35,498 nt of DNA from the IMG/VR virus record IMGVR_UViG_2531839531_000004, positions 1-35,498 of that record; one strand, given 5' to 3'. This document shows positions 2,460 through 16,463 of this stretch, in pieces. A program made the translations under genes and the position numbers. Every line of letters starts with the position of its first letter. Position 1 is the first letter of the stretch. The notes beneath the pieces were generated by a model that saw nothing but the letters and a program-made list of their open reading frames with translations, ran no database searches and was not told the origin of the DNA. The DNA is from a virus. Its lineage: Duplodnaviria > Heunggongvirae > Uroviricota > Caudoviricetes.

Positions 2460-4031
2460 ATGGACACCTCACTTGCTCATGAGAACGCCCGCCTGCGGGC
2501 ACTGTTGCAGACGCAACAGGACACCATCCGCCAGATGGCTGAATACAACCGCCTGCTCTCACAGCGGGTGGCGGCTTATGCTTCCGAAATCAACCGGCTG
2601 AAGGCGCTGGTTGCGAAACTGCAACGTATGCAGTTCGGTAAAAGCTCAGAAAAACTTCGTGCAAAAACCGAACGGCAGATACAGGAAGCACAGGAGCGAA
2701 TCAGCGCACTTCAGGAAGAAATGGCGGAAACGCTGGGTGAGCAATATGACCCGGTACTGCCATCCGCCCTGCGCCAGTCTTCAGCCCGTAAACCGTTACC
2801 GGCCTCACTTCCCCGTGAAACCCGGGTTATCCGGCCGGAAGAGGAATGCTGTCCTGCCTGTGGTGGTGAACTCAGTTCTCTGGGATGTGATGTGTCAGAG
2901 CAACTGGAGCTTATCAGCAGCGCCTTTAAGGTTATCGAAACACAACGTCCGAAACAGGCCTGTTGCCGGTGCGACCATATCGTGCAGGCACCAGTACCTT
3001 CAAAACCCATTGCACGCAGTTATGCCGGAGCGGGGCTTCTGGCCCATGTTGTCACCGGGAAATATGCAGACCATCTGCCGTTATACCGCCAGTCAGAAAT
3101 ATACCGTCGTCAGGGAGTGGAGCTGAGCCGTGCCACACTGGGGCGCTGGACAGGTGCTGTTGCTGAACTGCTGGAGCCGCTGTATGACGTCCTGCGCCAG
3201 TATGTGCTGATGCCCGGTAAAGTCCATGCTGATGATATCCCCGTCCCGGTCCAGGAGCCGGGCAGCGGTAAAACCCGGACAGCCCGGCTGTGGGTCTACG
3301 TCCGTGATGACCGTAACGCCGGTTCACAGATGCCCCCGGCGGTCTGGTTCGCGTACAGTCCGGACCGGAAAGGTATCCATCCACAAAATCACCTGGCCGG
3401 TTACAGCGGTGTGCTTCAGGCCGATGCTTACGGTGGTTACCGGGCGTTATACGAATCCGGCAGAATAACGGAAGCCGCGTGTATGGCTCATGCCCGGAGA
3501 AAAATCCACGATGTGCATGCAAGAGCGCCCACCTACATCACCACGGAAGCCCTGCAGCGTATCGGTGAACTGTATGCCATCGAGGCAGAGGTCCGGGGCT
3601 GTTCAGCAGAACAGCGTCTGGCGGCAAGAAAAGCCAGAGCCGCGCCACTGATGCAGTCACTGTATGACTGGATACAGCAACAGATGAAAACACTGTCGCG
3701 TCACTCAGATACGGCAAAAGCGTTCGCATACCTGCTGAAACAGTGGGATGCACTGAACGTGTACTGCAGTAATGGCTGGGTGGAAATCGACAACAACATC
3801 GCAGAGAACGCCTTACGGGGAGTGGCCGTAGGCCGGAAAAACTGGATGTTCGCGGGTTCCGACAGCGGTGGTGAACATGCGGCGGTGTTGTACTCGTTGA
3901 TCGGCACATGCCGTCTGAACAATGTGGAGCCAGAAAAGTGGCTGCGTTACGTCATTGAACATATCCAGGACTGGCCGGCAAACCGGGTACGCGATCTGTT
4001 GCCCTGGAAAGTTGATCTGAGCTCTCAGTAA
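2460..4031 (+). CDS. tnpC: IS66-family transposase TnpC (orf3)
   Basis: 523-aa ORF with N-terminal coiled-coil, CxxC...CxC zinc-finger-like region, and the conserved HLPLYRQSE, [11 protein letters not shown] and ADAYGGY segments shared with copy 2. Confidence 0.85.
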
Positions 4032-8730: not shown

Positions 8731-8815
8731 GTAAGCGTAAAGCCAATGCCGTCTGTAACACCTGCTCCTTGCAGACTAAATTAGAGCTCCTTCTAAATTA
8801 GACGGAGTTCTATTG

Positions 8816-9247
8816 ATGGATAAACCTACAGACTGGCGCTCCGGAACCCGCCGGATATTTTCTAATGAATTTAAACTTCATATGGTTGAACTGGCTTCGA
8901 AACCAAATGCCAATGTTGCACAACTGGCCCGGGAACATGGCGTTGATAACAACCTGATTTTTAAATGGCTACGCCTCTGGCAAAGAGAAGGACGTATTTC
9001 TCGTAGAATGCCTCCAACTATTGTAGGCCCTACAGTATCACAATCTTTTCCGGCCTCTCCGACTCTGGTTCCAGTGGAACTTATCGACACCCCGCGCTGT
9101 GCTACAGATGCTCCTGCTCCGGAGGCATTATCAGTTGCTTGCGCAGCTTCCTGCCATGTGGAATTCCATTACGGTAAAATGATGCTGGAAAATCCTTCAC
9201 CAGAGCTGCTCACGGTGTTGATCCGTGAGCTGACCGGGAGGGGATGA
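8816..9247 (+). CDS. tnpA: IS66-family accessory protein (orf1/TnpA)
   Basis: ATG at 8816 (MDKPTDWRSGTRRIFSNEFKLHMVELASKPNANVAQLAREHGVDNNLIFKWLR...); HTH-like region; stop overlaps the orf2 start. Confidence 0.8.
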   Translation: MDKPTDWRSGTRRIFSNEFKLHMVELASKPNANVAQLAREHGVDNNLIFKWLRLWQREGRISRRMPPTIVGPTVSQSFPASPTLVPVELIDTPRCATDAPAPEALSVACAASCHVEFHYGKMMLENPSPELLTVLIRELTGRG

Positions 9248-9597
9248 TGATTTCACTCCCATCAGGTACCCGTATCTGGCTCGTTGCCGGCGTTACTGAT
9301 ATGCGTAAATCCTTCAACGGTCTGGGGGAGCAGATACAGCATGTGCTGGATGATAACCCCTTCTCCGGTCACCTGTTTATCTTCCGTGGCCGACGGGGAG
9401 ACACGATTAAAATCCTGTGGGCTGATGCTGATGGTCTGTGCCTGTTCACCAAACGCCTTGAGGAAGGTCAGTTTATCTGGCCTGCGGTGCGTGACGGTAA
9501 GATATCCATTACCCGCTCGCAACTGGCAATGCTCCTCGATAAGCTGGACTGGCGTCAGCCAAAAACATCCCGCCTTAACGCACTGACAATGTTGTAA
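9244..9597 (+). CDS. tnpB: IS66-family TnpB (orf2)
   Basis: 117 aa, parallel to copy 1 TnpB. Confidence 0.85.
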   Translation: MMISLPSGTRIWLVAGVTDMRKSFNGLGEQIQHVLDDNPFSGHLFIFRGRRGDTIKILWADADGLCLFTKRLEEGQFIWPAVRDGKISITRSQLAMLLDKLDWRQPKTSRLNALTML

Positions 9598-9627
9598 AAA
9601 ACGCCGGGCCGGATTATAAAAACGGCC

Positions 9628-11240
9628 ATGAGTCAGAAATACCTCATTCGCATCGCTGAGCTGGAAAGGCTGCTCTCTGAGCAGGCTGAAGCCCTCCGTC
9701 AGAAAGACCAGCAACTGAGTCTGGTTGAAGAGACGGAGGCCTTCCTGCGCTCTGCACTGGCACGTGCCGAAGAAAAGATCGAAGAAGATGAGCGAGAAAT
9801 AGAGCATCTGCGGGCTCAGATAGAAAAACTGCGCCGGATGCTGTTTGGAACCCGTTCTGAAAAACTGCGTCGTGAGGTTGAACAGGCTGAAGCCCTGCTG
9901 AAACAACGCGAGCAGGAAAGCGATCGTTACAGTGGGCGTGAGGATGACCCGCTGGTTCCCCGCCAGTTGCGACAGTCGCGCCATCGTCGTCCGTTACCGG
10001 CACATCTCCCCCGTGAAATATACCGCCTGGAGCCTGAAGAAAGCTGTTGCCCGGAGTGTGGCGGTGAGCTGGATTATCTGGGGGAAGTCAGCGCAGAACA
10101 ACTGGAACTGGTGAGCAGCGCCCTGAAAGTGATCCGCACAGAACGGGTAAAAAAGCCTGTACAAAATGTGACTGCATCGTTGAAGCACCGGCGCCGTCCC
10201 GCCCGATAGAGCGTGGTATCGCGGGCCCCGGATTACTTGCCCGCGTGTTAACGGGAAAATACTGCGAACACCTGCCACTGTATCGTCAGAGTGAAATCTT
10301 TGCCCGACAGGGTGTCGAACTGAGCCGTGCATTACTCTCCAACTGGGTTGACGCGTGCTGCCAGTTAATGACGCCGCTGAATGATGCCCTGTACCGTTAT
10401 GTGATGAATACCCGCAAGCTTCACACTGACGACACACCGGTAAAGGTACTGGCACCGGGCCTGAAAAAGACGAAAACAGGGCGCATCTGGACGTATGTCC
10501 GGGATGATCGCAATGCGGGTTCGTCATCTCCTCCGGCGGTCTGGTTCGCGTACTCATCGAACCGGCAGGGGAAACACCCGGAGCAACACCTCCGCCCCTT
10601 CCGGGGTATCCTGCAGGCGGATGCGTTCACAGGTTATGACAGGCTGTTCAGTGCAGAACGTGAAGGTAGTGCGCTGACAGAAGTTGCGTGCTGGGCTCAT
10701 GCCCGGAGAAAAATCCACGATGTATACATCAGCAGCAAAAGTGCGACGGCAGAAGAAGCCCTGAAGCGAATCAGTGAACTGTACGCCATCGAGGATGAAA
10801 TACGGGGATTACCAGAGTCAGAACGTCTTGCAGCCAGGCAGCAGCGAAGCAAAGCGTTACTGACGTCGCTGCATGAATGGATGGTGGAGAAGAATGGCAC
10901 GCTGTCGAAAAAATCCAGACTGGGCGAAGCGTTCAGCTATGTACTGAATCAGTGGGACGCCCTCTGTTATTACAGTGATGACGGTCTGGCGGAGGTGGAC
11001 AATAACACAGCGGAAAGAGCGCTTCGTGCAGTCTGTCTCGGAAAGAAAAATTACGTGTTCTTCGGTAGCGATCACGGCGGCGAGCGTGGAGCACTGCTGT
11101 ACGGGCTGATCGGCACCTGCCGTCTGAACGGTATCGATCCGGAAGCGTATCTGCGCCATATTCTGAGCGTACTGCCGGAATGGCCCTCCAACCGTGTTGA
11201 CGAACTCCTGCCATGGAACGTAGTACTCACCAATAAATAA
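9628..11240 (+). pseudogene. tnpC: IS66-family transposase TnpC, split by a 1-bp frameshift at an A-run
   Basis: ORFs 9628-10209 and 10245-11240 together cover a full TnpC. In the -1 frame from the A6 run at 10149-10154 the sequence reads [49 protein letters not shown], aligning with copy 1 (...[46 protein letters not shown]). Confidence 0.8.
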
Positions 11241-11270
11241 GCGTCAATACGGTGCTCCGTTGACGCTTAC

Positions 11271-11765
11271 AAGGACTGCTGGCAAACGCCGCTTTGGCTT
11301 TTTGATGCACTGGATATTGAGTTTGGATTCTGGCTGGATTCGGCAGCGAGCGACAAAAATGCTCTGTGTGCTCACTGGCTAACTGAGGCCGACGACGCGC
11401 TCAATTCTGAGTGGGTAAGCCACGGTGCAATCTGGAATAACCCACCGTACAGCAATATCAGGCCGTGGGTGGAAAAAGCCGCTGAGCAGTGCATACAACA
11501 GCGACAGACGGTAGTTATGCTTGTGCCAGAGGATATGTCAGTCGGATGGTTCAGCAAGGCTCTGGAGAGTGTCGACGAAGTTCGCATTATCACTGATGGA
11601 CGGATTAATTTTATCGAACCATCGACAGGGCTGGAGAAGAAGGGAAACAGCAAAGGCTCCATGCTGCTGATTTGGCGACCGTTCATCAGTCCTCGACGGA
11701 TGTTTACTACCGTATCCAAAGCGGCATTGATGGCGATCGGGCAGGGCGTCAGGAGGGCGGCATGA
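11271..11765 (+). pseudogene. Phage N6-adenine DNA methyltransferase (Dam-like), 5'-truncated at the IS66 boundary
   Basis: Frame is open from the IS66 right end with no start codon. Translation contains FDALDIEFGFWLDSAASDKNALC...WNNPPYS (NPPY motif IV of N6A methyltransferases). Stop TGA at 11763-11765 overlaps the ninE ATG. Confidence 0.7.
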
Positions 11766-12488: not shown

Positions 12489-12851
12489 GTGAATACCTAC
12501 AGCATCACATTACCCTGGCCTCCGAGCAATAACCGCTACTACCGGCATAATCGCGGGCGCACGCACATCAGCGCAGAAGGGCAGGCATACCGCGATAACG
12601 TCACCCGAATCATTAAAAACGCAATGCTGGATATCGGCCTGGCTATGCCAGTGAAAATCCGTATTGAGTGCCACATGCCGGATCGCCGTCGCCGTGACCT
12701 GGATAATCTGCAAAAAGCCGCTTTTGACGCACTCACCAAAGCAGGTTTCTGGCTGGATGATGCTCAGGTCGTTGATTACCGCGTTGTGAAGATGCCTGTT
12801 ACCAAAGGTGGGAGGCTGGAACTGACCATCACCGAAATGGGGAATGAATGA
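12489..12851 (+). CDS. rusA: RusA Holliday-junction resolvase
   Basis: 120-aa product (GTG start) matching E. coli DLP12 RusA ([26 protein letters not shown]...[11 protein letters not shown]). Confidence 0.92.
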
Positions 12852-12988
12852 TGTTTGAGTTTTATATGGCAGAACTTCTTCGCCACCGCTGGGGGCATCT
12901 GCGCTTATATCGTTTCCCCGGTTCTGTTTTGACCGATTACCGAATACTGAAGAATTACGCCAAAACCCTGACAGGAGCAGGAGTATGA
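12848..12988 (+). CDS. ylcG: YlcG-like small protein (46 aa)
   Basis: ATG at 12848 overlaps the rusA stop (ATGATG). Product [46 protein letters not shown]. Not in the ORF track (below 60 aa), found by manual translation. Confidence 0.6.
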
Positions 12989-13073: not shown

Positions 13074-13457
13074 ATGCGTGATATTCAGATGGTTCTTGAG
13101 CGTTGGGGAGCGTGGGCGGCTAATAATCATGAAGATGTGACCTGGTCGTCCATTGCCGCCGGTTTTAAGGGATTAATTACTTCAAAAGTAAAATCTCGCC
13201 CGCAATGTTGTGACGATGACGCGATGATCATTTGCGGGTGCATGGCCCGTCTGAAAAAGAACAACAGCGATTTGCACGATTTATTAGTAGATTATTATGT
13301 AGTCGGTATGACATTCATGTCACTGGCAGGTAAGCATTGCTGCTCTGATGGTTATATCGGGAAAAGGTTACAGAAGGCTGAGGGCATAATTGAAGGGATG
13401 TTAATGGCATTAGATATCCGGTTAGAGATGGATATCGTTGTTAATAACTCTAATTAA
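13074..13457 (+). CDS. quuD: Late-gene antiterminator Q (QuuD / phage-21-like type)
   Basis: 127 aa from ATG 13074 ([26 protein letters not shown]...), matching DLP12 QuuD as I recall it. The track ORF start at 13059 is a TTG. Confidence 0.85.
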
Positions 13458-13480
13458 TACGCCAATTATTTACTAAAAGT

Positions 13481-13508
13481 TATTAAAAATGGGGCGTTGA
13501 AACGCCCC
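13481..13508 (-). terminator. Intrinsic terminator-like hairpin downstream of the porin gene
   Basis: Stem GGGGCG (13491-13496) / CGCCCC (13503-13508) with a 6-nt loop; on the minus strand it is followed by AUUUUUAAUA. Lies about 140 bp past the porin stop. Confidence 0.5.
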
Positions 13509-13548
13509 CAAAAATAAAGGGTAATATATAACAGAAGGTTTGTATAGT

Positions 13549-13637
13549 TAGAAGCAAGGTTGTGCTTCTAAAGGAAGTGGCTTGAGGGAGCCACTTATAT
13601 GTTGGGGAGGCAAAGCCTCCCACAACATATCTTTTAG
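13549..13637. repeat. Cluster of three further inverted-repeat hairpins in the Q-porin convergent spacer
   Basis: AGAAGCA/TGCTTCT (13549-13568); AGTGGCT/AGCCACT (13575-13594); ATATGTTGGGGAGGC / GCCTCCCACAACATAT (13597-13630, one bulge) followed by CTTTTAG on the plus strand. Confidence 0.5.
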
Positions 13638-13645
13638 TAATCAAA

Positions 13646-14728
13646 TTAGAACTGGTAAACCATACCTACAGCAACGATATCATCGGTAGCAACGCCAGAT
13701 GCTTTCGTGAAATCGCTCTTATCAATCAGGTTGATTTTGTAGTCAACAAAAGTGGACATATCTTTGTTGAAGTAATAGGTTGCACCTACATCAACATATT
13801 CAACCAGGTCCTGATCACCCCAAACACCCAAGTCTTTTCCTTTAGAATGCAGGTAAGCAACGGATGGACGCAGGCCGAAGTCGAACTGATATTGTGCAAC
13901 AGCTTCGAAGTTTTGTGCTTTGTTGGCAATATGGTTATTACCAAAAACAGTCATGTTCTGGGTTTCAGAATAGGTGGTGGCCAGATAGATGTTGTTCGCA
14001 TCATATTTCAGACCAGCTGCCCATACTTCAGCATTTTGACCAGAAGCATTCAGACCGTTGTTACCGTAGATAACCTGATTATTAGTGCGATCAGATTTAG
14101 CATAGGTTGCACCCACGCCGAATCCTTCATACTCATAAGTAGTTGAGAAACCGAAACCATCGCCATTAGCTTCAGTTACTTCATTTCGGTCATTTTTGCC
14201 CTGATACTGAGCTGCAAAGTTCAGGCCATCAACCAGACCAAAGAAGTCGTTGTTACGATAAGTTGCAACACCTGTGGTGCGACCAGTCATGAATACATCT
14301 GTTTGGGTCCAGGTATCGCCACCGAATTCTGGCAGAACGTCAGTCCACGCACCGATGTCGTATGCTACACCGTAGTTACGGCCGTAATCGATTGAGCCGT
14401 AGTCACCGAATTTCAGGCCTGCAAATGCAAGACGGGTTTTGTCTTTGGAGGAACCTTGAGATTCAGCGCGGTTGCCTTTGAATTCATATTCCCACTGACC
14501 GAAACCAGTCAGTTGATCGTTGATTTGGGTTTCACCTTTGAAGCCAAGACGGGCATAAGTAGTATCACCATCATCTGCATCATTAGAGGAGAAGTAGTGC
14601 TTAGCATTAACTTTCCCGTACAGATCCAGCTTGTTACTGTCTTTATTATAAATTTCAGCTGCCTGAGCAGACATCGCCATCAGTACTGATGCAGCTACAG
14701 CAGAAATTGCCACTGTTAATTTTTTCAT
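13646..14728 (-). CDS. nmpC: Outer-membrane general porin, NmpC/Lc (OmpC/PhoE family), intact
   Basis: 360-aa product with signal peptide ([23 protein letters not shown]), beta-barrel porin pattern and C-terminal ...VGMVYQF. Matches E. coli NmpC as I recall it. AT-rich upstream region 14729-15270. Confidence 0.92.
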
Positions 14729-15316
14729 CGTGAGCCCTTTTTTTTGAACTATTATTAAAAAATGATGTCACTGCGCGATAAATATTCATCTAATCAATGT
14801 GATTATTTCAAGATGTAAGTTTTAGTTTCTCATTTAATTTGTGAAGTAGATCTCTATTTTTATCTGAACTTTTTCTATCGAAACCTATTTATGGCTCTTA
14901 TTTGAACAAAAATAAACCTATTAGCTAATTTATATTAATGGCTGTTATTTATGGGGGTTCTATAATTCGGCAGTTTAATTTAAATCAACTAAAAATAACC
15001 TCTGAAATTATTTATTGGTTATTTGTTGAGGTTTTCTTATGTATTTGTGGTGGTGTTTTGAACACTCGGTAGCATTCTCATAAATATCATTCAGTGGTTT
15101 ACGTACGTAAAAAATTGGTTATGCTGTTAAGAGTGGTTACTTCGTCACACAGCTTAAACCCGCCGTCGAGCTGGTTTTTCCATTTTTTGAGTCTCGATAT
15201 TAGCTGATAACTCAATACCTGAGTTATTCACTGACTCCGAGTCTGTTACGTTTCTGCTTTTTTGCGATACGTTGTATTCCCTCAATTTACACCCGCTTTG
15301 TCTGCGAGGTGGGGTT

Positions 15317-15532
15317 ATGAAATCCATGGATAAGTTAACAACGGGTGTCGCCTATGGCACCTCAGCAGGTAGTGCCGGTTACTGGTTTTTACAGCTGCTC
15401 GATAAAGTCACGCCCTCACAGTGGGCAGCAATAGGTGTGCTGGGTAGCCTGGTATTTGGCCTGCTGACGTACCTGACAAACCTTTATTTCAAGATTAAAG
15501 AAGATAAGCGCAAGGCTGCGAGAGGTGAATAA
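15317..15532 (+). CDS. S: Class II holin of the S21 (pinholin) type with dual-start motif
   Basis: ATG-AAA-TCC-ATG (MKSM) dual start at 15317 and 15326; 71/68-aa product with two TM segments, like phage 21 S / DLP12 EssD. Stop overlaps the R start. Confidence 0.88.
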
Positions 15533-16029
15533 TGCCTCCATCATTACGAAAAGCCGTTGCTGCTGCTATTGGTGGCGGAGCAATTGCTATAGCATCAGTG
15601 TTAATTACTGGCCCAAGTGGTAACGATGGTCTGGAAGGTGTCAGCTACATACCATACAAAGATATTGTTGGTGTATGGACTGTATGTCACGGGCATACAG
15701 GAAAAGACATCATGCTCGGTAAAACGTATACCAAAGCAGAATGCAAAGCCCTCCTGAATAAAGACCTTGCCACGGTCGCCAGACAAATTAACCCGTACAT
15801 CAAAGTCGATATACCGGAAACAATGCGCGGCGCTCTTTACTCATTCGTTTACAACGTGGGTGCTGGCAATTTCAGAACATCGACGCTTCTTCGCAAAATA
15901 AACCAGGGCGATATCAAAGGCGCATGTGATCAGCTACGTCGCTGGACATATGCTGGCGGTAAGCAATGGAAAGGTCTCATGACTCGTCGTGAGATTGAGC
16001 GTGAAATCTGTTTGTGGGGTCAGCAATGA
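15532..16029 (+). CDS. R: SAR endolysin (T4-lysozyme-like muramidase with N-terminal signal-arrest-release domain)
   Basis: 165 aa. N-terminal weakly hydrophobic G/A-rich segment ([20 protein letters not shown]), then a lysozyme core with the E-x8-D-x5-T arrangement ([16 protein letters not shown]). Like phage 21 R / RrrD. Confidence 0.88.
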
Positions 16030-16463
16030 ACAGAGTAACCGCGATTATCTCCGCTCTGGTTATCTGCATCATCGTCTGCCTGTCATGGGCTGTTAATCAT
16101 TACCGTGATAACGCCATGACCTACAAAGAACAGCGCGACAAAGCCACATCCATCATCGCTGACATGCAGAAGCGTCAACGTGACGTAGCAGAACTCGATG
16201 CCAGATATACAAAGGAGCTTGCTGATGCTAACGCGACTATCGAAAGTCTCCGTGATGATGTTTCTGCTGGGCGTAAGCGGCTGCAAGTCGCCGCCTCCTG
16301 TGCAAAGTCAAAGACCGGAGCCAGCAGCATGGGCGATGGAGAAAGCCCAAGACTTACAGCAGATGCTGAACTCAATTATTACCGTCTCCGAAGTGGAATC
16401 GACAGGATAACCGCGCAGGTTAACTACCTGCAGGAGTACATCAGGACGCAATGTCTGAAATAA
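16026..16463 (+). CDS. Rz: Rz i-spanin
   Basis: ATG at 16026 overlaps the R stop. N-terminal TM ([18 protein letters not shown]) followed by a coiled-coil periplasmic domain. Confidence 0.85.
16225..16410 (+). CDS. Rz1: Rz1 o-spanin lipoprotein, embedded in Rz in the +1 frame
   Basis: ATG at 16225 preceded by AAAGGAG; signal peptide with lipobox ([20 protein letters not shown]); proline-rich mature part. Lies entirely within Rz. Confidence 0.75.

Follow-up and report, generated by a model that had tools for sequence, protein, structure and literature searches.

A leftward porin cassette probably separates the Q antiterminator gene from its late promoter in a lambdoid prophage module

In the viral DNA analyzed here (IMG/VR record IMGVR_UViG_2531839531_000004, Caudoviricetes; the whole stretch of 35,498 nucleotides is called the window), an intact porin gene is located on the minus strand between the gene of the Q antiterminator and a lysis cassette, both of which are read on the plus strand. 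The question raised by this locus is where the late promoter pR', the target of Q, is situated. Two sites were considered in the original prediction. One was the 13458-13645 spacer directly past Q, in which case late transcription would run antisense through the whole porin gene, and the other was the 14729-15316 region between the porin and the holin gene S. The premise of a complete porin antisense between Q and S was borne out by the open reading frames (Table 1), and the RefSeq annotation of MG1655 agrees that the porin homologue of K-12 is interrupted by IS5.

The Q protein was recognized by the PF06530 profile in Pfam with 179 bits, and a phmmer comparison with the Q21 structures 6jnx and 6p18 resulted in an E-value of 7.6e-7. 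An assignment of Q to the phage 82 family was dropped, as PF06530 is named the Q21 family in PMC9388147. The protein was found to be 100% identical to K-12 QuuD and 78-81% identical to the Q proteins of Stx phages such as 933W. The lysis cassette S-R-Rz spans 15317-16463 on the plus strand. A 4-kb segment shared 99.4% identity with phage ev099 and the Q-porin-S module was present with 100% identity in one complete genome, E. coli SCU-104, hence the arrangement is no chance feature of the window. The same arrangement was found in many plaque-forming lambdoid phages, and at least 80% of the module was contiguous in 2396 of 5426 complete E. coli genomes. The feature is the long-known, already described nmpC/lc porin cassette (plus IpeX) of DLP12/PA-2-type prophages.

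The porin matched the PF00267 (Porin_1) profile in Pfam over its full length (profile positions 1-337 of 337, 505 bits) and the OmpC, OmpK36 and PhoE structures with E-values of ~1e-133. It has a normal signal peptide and a C-terminus of ...VGMVYQF with a final aromatic Phe. The porin shared 91-92% identity with both Lc of PA-2 and the NmpC fragment of K-12, and the differences were gathered in three short blocks (alignment columns ~182-190, 219-236 and 268-272) that probably correspond to surface loops. By its profile, export signal and identity, the protein is assigned on sequence grounds to the general bacterial porins of the NmpC/Lc/OmpD subgroup. Two properties of a moron were also found. 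The cassette between Q and the pR' block is swapped in relatives for other cargo or for nothing, and it has a predicted terminator of its own, which is the minus-strand hairpin 13491-13508 followed by a U-tract. It was previously suggested that a porin expressed in the lysogen can change permeability and receptor availability; this is established for Lc/PA-2 and IpeX and is not new. The intact nmpC has been described as quiescent in E. coli B by a reference listed in PMC3333887.

Table 1. Annotated and predicted features of the Q-porin-lysis segment in the window
Feature	Position	Strand	Basis and remarks
rusA	12489-12851		left end of mapped segment; ORF map, Pfam
ylcG	12848-12988		between rusA and Q; ORF map, Pfam
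Q antiterminator, QuuD type, Q21 family	13074 (ATG)-13457	+	127 aa; ORF, PF06530
Predicted intrinsic terminator of leftward porin/IpeX transcript	13483-13508	-	terminator scan; hairpin 13491-13508, U-tract
Porin 3'UTR, homologous to DLP12 IpeX sRNA locus	13483-13645	-	hairpins, K-12 spacer identity
Intact general porin, NmpC/Lc type	13646-14728	-	360 aa, uninterrupted frame
AT-rich porin upstream region, part of cassette	14729-15097		GC 0.28
Possible sigma-E-type rightward promoter GAACT-17-TCACT	14746-14778	+	+1 at ~A14778; from primer arithmetic
CRP/CAP site	14837-14857		exact match to one annotated upstream of lc in J02580; inherited PA-2 annotation
Predicted late promoter pR'	15098-15125	+	-35 TTTACG 15098-15103, 16-nt spacer, -10 TATGCT 15120-15125; 933W homology
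Perfect 14-bp dyad TTTACGTACGTAAA, candidate Q-binding element	15098-15111	+	overlaps -35
Conserved start and initial transcribed region AAGAGTGGTTACTTCGTCACACAG	15129-15152	+	predicted start at ~A15132
tR'-like hairpin and U-tract GGUUUUUCCAUUUUUU	15150-15190	+	conserved across block-bearing loci
Pinholin S, P21-type holin family	15317 (ATG)-15532	+	ORF, Pfam
SAR endolysin R, phage lysozyme family	15532-16029	+	ORF, Pfam
Rz	16014-16463	+	own Pfam family; lipobox ORF 16198-16410 embedded

The region between the porin and S was found to contain a block at 15098-15190 that is homologous to the late promoter region of the Stx phages 933W and Sp5, which supports the second of the two proposed sites, inside 14729-15316, for pR'/qut. 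In the 933W record NC_000924, pR', qut and the terminator are annotated at the very end of Q. When positions 15098-15182 were aligned with this segment, 62 of the 86 positions were identical and the promoter hexamers were in register. The similarity to 933W begins sharply at the -35 hexamer and ends after the first hairpin. Within the window, the dyad occurs in one copy only, and AAGAGTGGTTAC at 15129-15140 is likewise a single match. A relaxed scan gave pR' a score of 8/12 against the sigma-70 consensus, which is a weak match. The consensus promoter/terminator scan detected no plus-strand promoter in either candidate region, and the homologous pR', sub-threshold at this score, was also missed by it. 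An alignment of the sequences just past Q from four phages was uninformative, and nothing useful was obtained by a full-text literature search on the transcribed motif and 'essDp'.

The transcription start was predicted by comparison with Sakai Sp5, the sequence of which is identical to that of 933W across the late promoter region. Sy et al. found by dRNA-seq that the Sp5 pR' transcript starts 258 nt before the 3' end determined at tR' by Term-seq, and reported an RNase E cut at +173, between GU and AUU of the sequence GUAUU. Both the 258 nt and the +173 were reproduced exactly, with the same 142-bp offset at both ends, when +1 was set at the middle A of AAG-A-GTGG (AAGAGTGG). The size of 74 nt given for StxS in the StxS paper did not match the 85 nt that were counted from the cleavage site to the U-tract. 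The window equivalent of the Sp5 +1 is A15132, located 185 nt before the S start codon; the PA-2 record J02580 labels 15132-15152 a second CAP site. The free energy of the terminator-like hairpin was -12 kcal/mol for the K-12 form and a weaker -6.7 kcal/mol, with an alternative stem, for the window/PA-2 form carrying T15172. The StxS-type stable 3' fragment upstream of tR' in the Stx phages had no homologous counterpart in the window, where the similarity to 933W stops after the first hairpin.

Further, the linkage of the block to Q was investigated. When IMG/VR was scanned with the transcribed motif as an exact pattern, 120 loci were retrieved, hence the invariance of that part is partly by construction. 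A PF06530 Q gene was present upstream of the block on the same strand, and nowhere else, in each of the 75 IMG/VR loci whose sequence extends 3 kb or more upstream of the block. Where Q was full-length, the motif was located 18 to 2886 bp downstream of its stop codon. Among 127 related loci, the pR' block was present in every one, and the 13458-13645 spacer was found in 47 of the 55 porin-bearing and in none of the 72 porin-less loci, which argues against the placement of pR' in the spacer.

Nine Q clusters, defined at 90% identity, have the transcribed part in common and carry four kinds of dyad 14-mer at -34 to -21, each kind being common only to related clusters. The dyad of the QuuD/Q933 clade is TTTAC(G/A)(TA/AT)CGTAAA. 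It is replaced by TGTGTTATAACAAA in a clade with a 62% identical Q, by nCGCGGTCCGCAAA in the clades with a ~50% identical Q, and by AACGCGTACGCAAA in those where Q is ~47% identical. The exact transcribed motif was absent from phage 1H12, the Q of which is 87.5% identical, and the promoter of this phage was located through the dyad as TTTACAATCGTAAA-16-TATGAT, 1.9 kb downstream of Q and past its cargo. In 1H12, the dyad and the -10 hexamer are kept and the transcribed region differs. This co-variation with the Q clade suggests that the dyad at 15098-15111 is likely the Q-binding element. The conserved block together with the clade-specific dyad would serve as a practical locator of pR' in QuuD/Q933-type prophages, even when it is kilobases away from Q.

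The experimentally defined cassette of phage 21 consists of the -35, QBE, -10, start, pause element and terminator within 50 nt. The window resembles it in the Pfam family of Q, in the order of the elements and in the location of the putative terminator within ~50 nt of the start. As in a Q21-family cassette, a Q of this family, a predicted promoter with a clade-specific dyad and a promoter-proximal hairpin with a U-tract were identified. However, the P21 pR' directly follows Q, whereas the late unit of the window does not adjoin Q, the Q stop at 13457 and the -35 at 15098 being 1640 bp apart. The promoters show no sequence similarity, and the P21 QBE, formed by two 8-bp direct repeats located in the spacer, differs from the candidate of the window, an inverted repeat overlapping the -35.

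The spacer past Q had been described as hairpin-rich, and this holds. It is 188 nt long and strongly structured on the minus strand, where four strong hairpins were predicted within 13470-13660 (-67 kcal/mol, z = -9.8 versus shuffles). The last of them, the hairpin 13491-13508 (-13.9 kcal/mol), is followed by AUUUUUAAUAA on the minus strand. The plus strand after this hairpin reads CAAAAAUAAAG and has no U-tract, therefore the hairpin is unlike a terminator for transcription leaving Q. No other plus-strand terminator was seen between the Q stop and the cassette in the terminator scan. The spacer shares 179 of 189 positions with its K-12 counterpart between nmpC and quuD, and the sequence found 3' of lc in PA-2 is near-identical to it. 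Since it is confined to porin loci and shares this identity with the IpeX region of K-12, the spacer belongs to the porin rather than to Q.

IpeX has been described as a 167-nt RNA of DLP12 origin that is made from the porin promoter within the porin transcript, then processed, and represses OmpC (review PMC12197685); the target genes given in the literature are ompC/ompF. The homologous sequence of the window is located 3' of the porin gene on the porin strand, with ~163 nt from the porin stop to the U-tract. Among 22 variants of the IpeX-like region, the changes were found in loops and linkers and the stems were invariant. There were no compensatory changes, thus covariation could not be used. 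An Rfam search of the spacer and the leader at gathering and E-value thresholds gave no match, and Rfam has no model for IpeX.

The 14729-15316 region had been regarded as an AT-rich stretch of 540 bp. Its length is in fact 588 nt, and the AT-richness was confirmed for the left part only, as the GC content of 0.28 in 14729-15097 compares with 0.42 in 15098-15316. Among the 127 related loci, the left part was confined to the porin-bearing ones. The best leftward sigma-70-like candidate in it, GAGAAA-18-TG-AATAAT at 14831-14802, is a weak match to the consensus.

Based on these data, we proposed with a probability of roughly 0.85 that the late promoter is located at 15098-15125 and that the leftward porin cassette, 13458-15097, sits between Q and the target of Q. 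The cassette would be a self-contained leftward unit of lysogenic conversion, made up of a regulatory region, the porin, the IpeX locus as a structured 3'UTR and an intrinsic terminator, and was presumably inserted between Q and the site on which Q acts. Transcription from pR' would start near 15132, encounter the terminator-like hairpin at about +19 to +58 and have a ~185-nt leader to S. The porin and IpeX would be expressed from the porin promoter in the lysogen, where the transcripts from pR' would end early. Upon induction, Q would load at 15098-15150 and carry RNA polymerase on into S-R-Rz as well as the structural genes. The original prediction of late transcription running antisense through the whole porin is not upheld under this placement, as pR' lies between the porin and S and reads away from the porin. 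With the porin upstream of pR', it would be neither part of the late transcript nor antisense to it. The porin/IpeX cassette would stand outside the late operon as a leftward unit of its own, hence it poses no special regulatory paradox. The location of the late promoter and the Q target at 15098-15150 would settle a small annotation question for the window. Phage 434B is viable with its Q, late promoter and lysis genes replaced by a DLP12 segment that includes nmpC::IS5 between Q and the block, thus the DLP12 version of the module is functional in a viable phage.

Antisense transcription of the porin in lytic growth might nevertheless arise in another way, namely by early, pR-derived, N-type antiterminated read-through from Q, which would shut the cassette off on induction. 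We consider this possible but rather unlikely. It is consistent with the lack of a plus-strand intrinsic terminator from the Q stop to the cassette, where hairpin 13491-13508 is without a U-tract on that strand, and with the leftward orientation of the cargo in 17 of 19 types found in the gap between Q and pR'. However, the orientation bias may have other causes, such as insulation from late transcription or recombination history.

A different location of the Q-responsive lysis promoter is the sigma-E-type sequence at ~14746-14778, abutting the porin start, in which case the 15098 block would be merely a downstream element. The title of a 2013 paper by Rueggeberg reportedly states that a Q-like factor controls the DLP12 lysis cassette, and the title of a 2015 paper by Rueggeberg is said to name RpoE as its regulator. 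The DLP12 literature (Rueggeberg 2013, 2015) appears to put a sigma-E-dependent, Q-responsive 'essDp' ~355 bp further upstream than pR', near 14778. The DLP12 lysis promoter was cloned by Pasqua et al. (PMC7918800) as '-121 to +650' of Rueggeberg 2015, with primers that lie within nmpC and within essD and enclose 771 bp of K-12. By primer arithmetic, +1 falls at the equivalent of A14778, 50 nt from the porin ATG, and is preceded by the sigma-E-like motif given in Table 1; this numbering may be mirrored around the essD ATG, though. The 14746-14778 region is part of the porin cassette and was found in no relative devoid of the porin, there is no dyad near 14778, and a dyad promoter accompanies each of the related Q proteins of 933W, PhiR40_1 and 1H12. 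We therefore regard 14778 as a highly improbable Q target. Because the region is cassette-specific and absent from related Q phages, the promoter at 14778 is treated as a possible extra, host-controlled rightward promoter.

The placement of pR'/qut in the spacer directly past Q, where late transcription would cross ipeX and the porin in antisense, is extremely improbable: the late promoters of lambda, P21 and 933W do directly follow or overlap the end of Q, but in this spacer the consensus scan found no promoter-like plus-strand site, neither a dyad copy nor the transcribed motif is present, all 72 non-porin loci with related Q genes are devoid of it, and it is the IpeX region of K-12, the hairpins and terminator of which are read on the minus strand.

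The preferred location of pR' at 15098-15125 was also compared with known systems. The cryptic prophage DLP12 (qsr') of K-12 MG1655, arranged as quuD - nmpC::IS5 - essD-rrrD-rzpD, has the gene order and orientation of the window. Besides the spacer identity (179/189), the Q and S proteins are 100% identical, and 92 of 93 positions of the pR' block are the same. In contrast to DLP12, the window has an intact porin of a different allele (360 aa, with the loop-block differences), a leader that is 16 nt longer and a terminator hairpin of the T15172 form. The lc region of PA-2 (J02580) shares with the window an intact porin antisense to the lysis genes, the 3' region, the upstream CRP site and the pR' block including T15172. 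It differs in that Lc is a 365-aa allele, 91% identical to the porin of the window. In the Stx phages 933W/Sp5, Q is 78% identical and the -35/dyad, -10, start region and first hairpin of pR'/tR' are homologous to those of the window. However, the promoter of these phages overlaps the 3' end of Q and is followed by the cargo (tRNAs, stx) within the late transcript, whereas 1.64 kb of leftward cargo is found between Q and the promoter in the window.

It may be speculated that in Q21-family lambdoid prophages the gap from Q to a displaced pR' is a dedicated, nearly all-leftward cargo slot, where early read-through from Q, meeting no plus-strand terminator, would act as an automatic antisense off-switch for lysogen-only functions at induction, and where Q, guided by the clade-specific dyad, would find pR' however far away it is. 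This generalization is tentative, and we find it rather unlikely. No earlier description of such a slot was found in a limited literature search, and of this analysis only the cargo-slot rule and the clade-specific dyad may be new. The gap between Q and pR' would be a place to seek genes of lysogenic conversion and anti-phage genes; Kiwa and further candidate defence genes were among its mostly leftward contents. At least 19 cargo types were recorded in it, 17 of them leftward (binomial p = 7e-4). Rightward cargo such as stx is located downstream of pR'. The cargo of the gap included a Kiwa system (KwaB, E-value of 2e-150), a KAP NTPase (PDC-S20), PDC-M53, an HNH protein (PDC-M68), an NA37-like protein and lipoproteins.

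The gap from a Q21-family (PF06530) Q gene to its pR' block, which consists of the predicted late promoter, its start and a terminator-like hairpin, was recognized as a variable cargo slot. At least 19 cargo types were recorded in this gap across the window and related loci, and 17 of them were oriented leftward. Besides the window, the slot was present in loci L006, L011-L016, L021, L024, L039, L047, L050, L067, L090, L091 and L100-L102. The contents included Kiwa (KwaA/KwaB), KAP NTPase (PDC-S20), PDC-M53, an HNH protein (PDC-M68), an NA37-like protein and lipoproteins. In phage 1H12, a promoter-like site immediately 3' of Q was followed by a strong plus-strand terminator and then by a leftward lipocalin (Blc) gene, and the dyad promoter of this phage was located 1.9 kb downstream of Q, past this cargo.

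Such a dyad, a symmetric 14-mer, overlapped the -35 of pR' in the window, and an equivalent site was found in L004 (933W), L006, L014, L011, L024 and other loci. We proposed that the 14-mer may be a Q-binding element, a candidate role suggested by the sequence comparison because the dyad differed from one Q clade to another, in contrast to the transcribed region, which remained constant among the loci compared.

In the 1986 GenBank record of phage PA-2, the stretch labelled as the second "CAP binding site" corresponded exactly to nt 1-21 of the predicted pR' transcript. Further downstream, K-12 has a G where the window, PA-2 and about 20 viral contigs carry a T. With this T, the terminator hairpin close to the promoter was predicted to be weaker (-6.7 instead of -12 kcal/mol) and an alternative stem to be created. 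The leader between pR' and S differed from that of K-12 by a 16-nt indel, resulting in distances of 189 vs 173 nt across loci from the conserved initial transcribed motif to S. The sequence ...CTGCTTTTTTGCGATA... was present in this leader in the window and PA-2, but absent from K-12. In Sp5 and 933W, 85 nt were counted between the GU|AUU cut at +173 and the U-tract of tR', whereas a stable fragment of 74 nt was given in the StxS paper.

Coordinates of the features described (window unless another locus is named)
Feature	Position	Strand	Motif
Cargo slot	13458-15097
Dyad at the pR' -35	15098-15111
First 21 nt of predicted pR' transcript	15132-15152
T (G in K-12)	15172
Leader indel	about 15247-15270
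Sigma-E-like motif	14746-14778	+	GAACT-17-TCACT
Sigma-70-like site	13323-13294	-	GTGACA-18-CATAAT (10/12)
Post-Q site and terminator, 1H12 (L005)	3880-4010		TTGCTG-17-TAATGT
IS66-like element	about 8800-11300
Transposase reading frame, parts	9628-10209; 10245-11240

A sigma-E-like promoter motif adjoined the porin start codon and was directed at the lysis genes; its position agreed with the +1 implied by the published DLP12 reporter primers. The top sigma-70-like match of the region was antisense within Q, at a position resembling that of paQ of lambda and P21, and no CII-type TTGC repeat was seen at this site.

The nin region of the window was interrupted by an IS66-like element, the transposase reading frame of which was apparently split. 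Transposases of the ISCro1/ISEc23 type were annotated at the corresponding place in related genomes.
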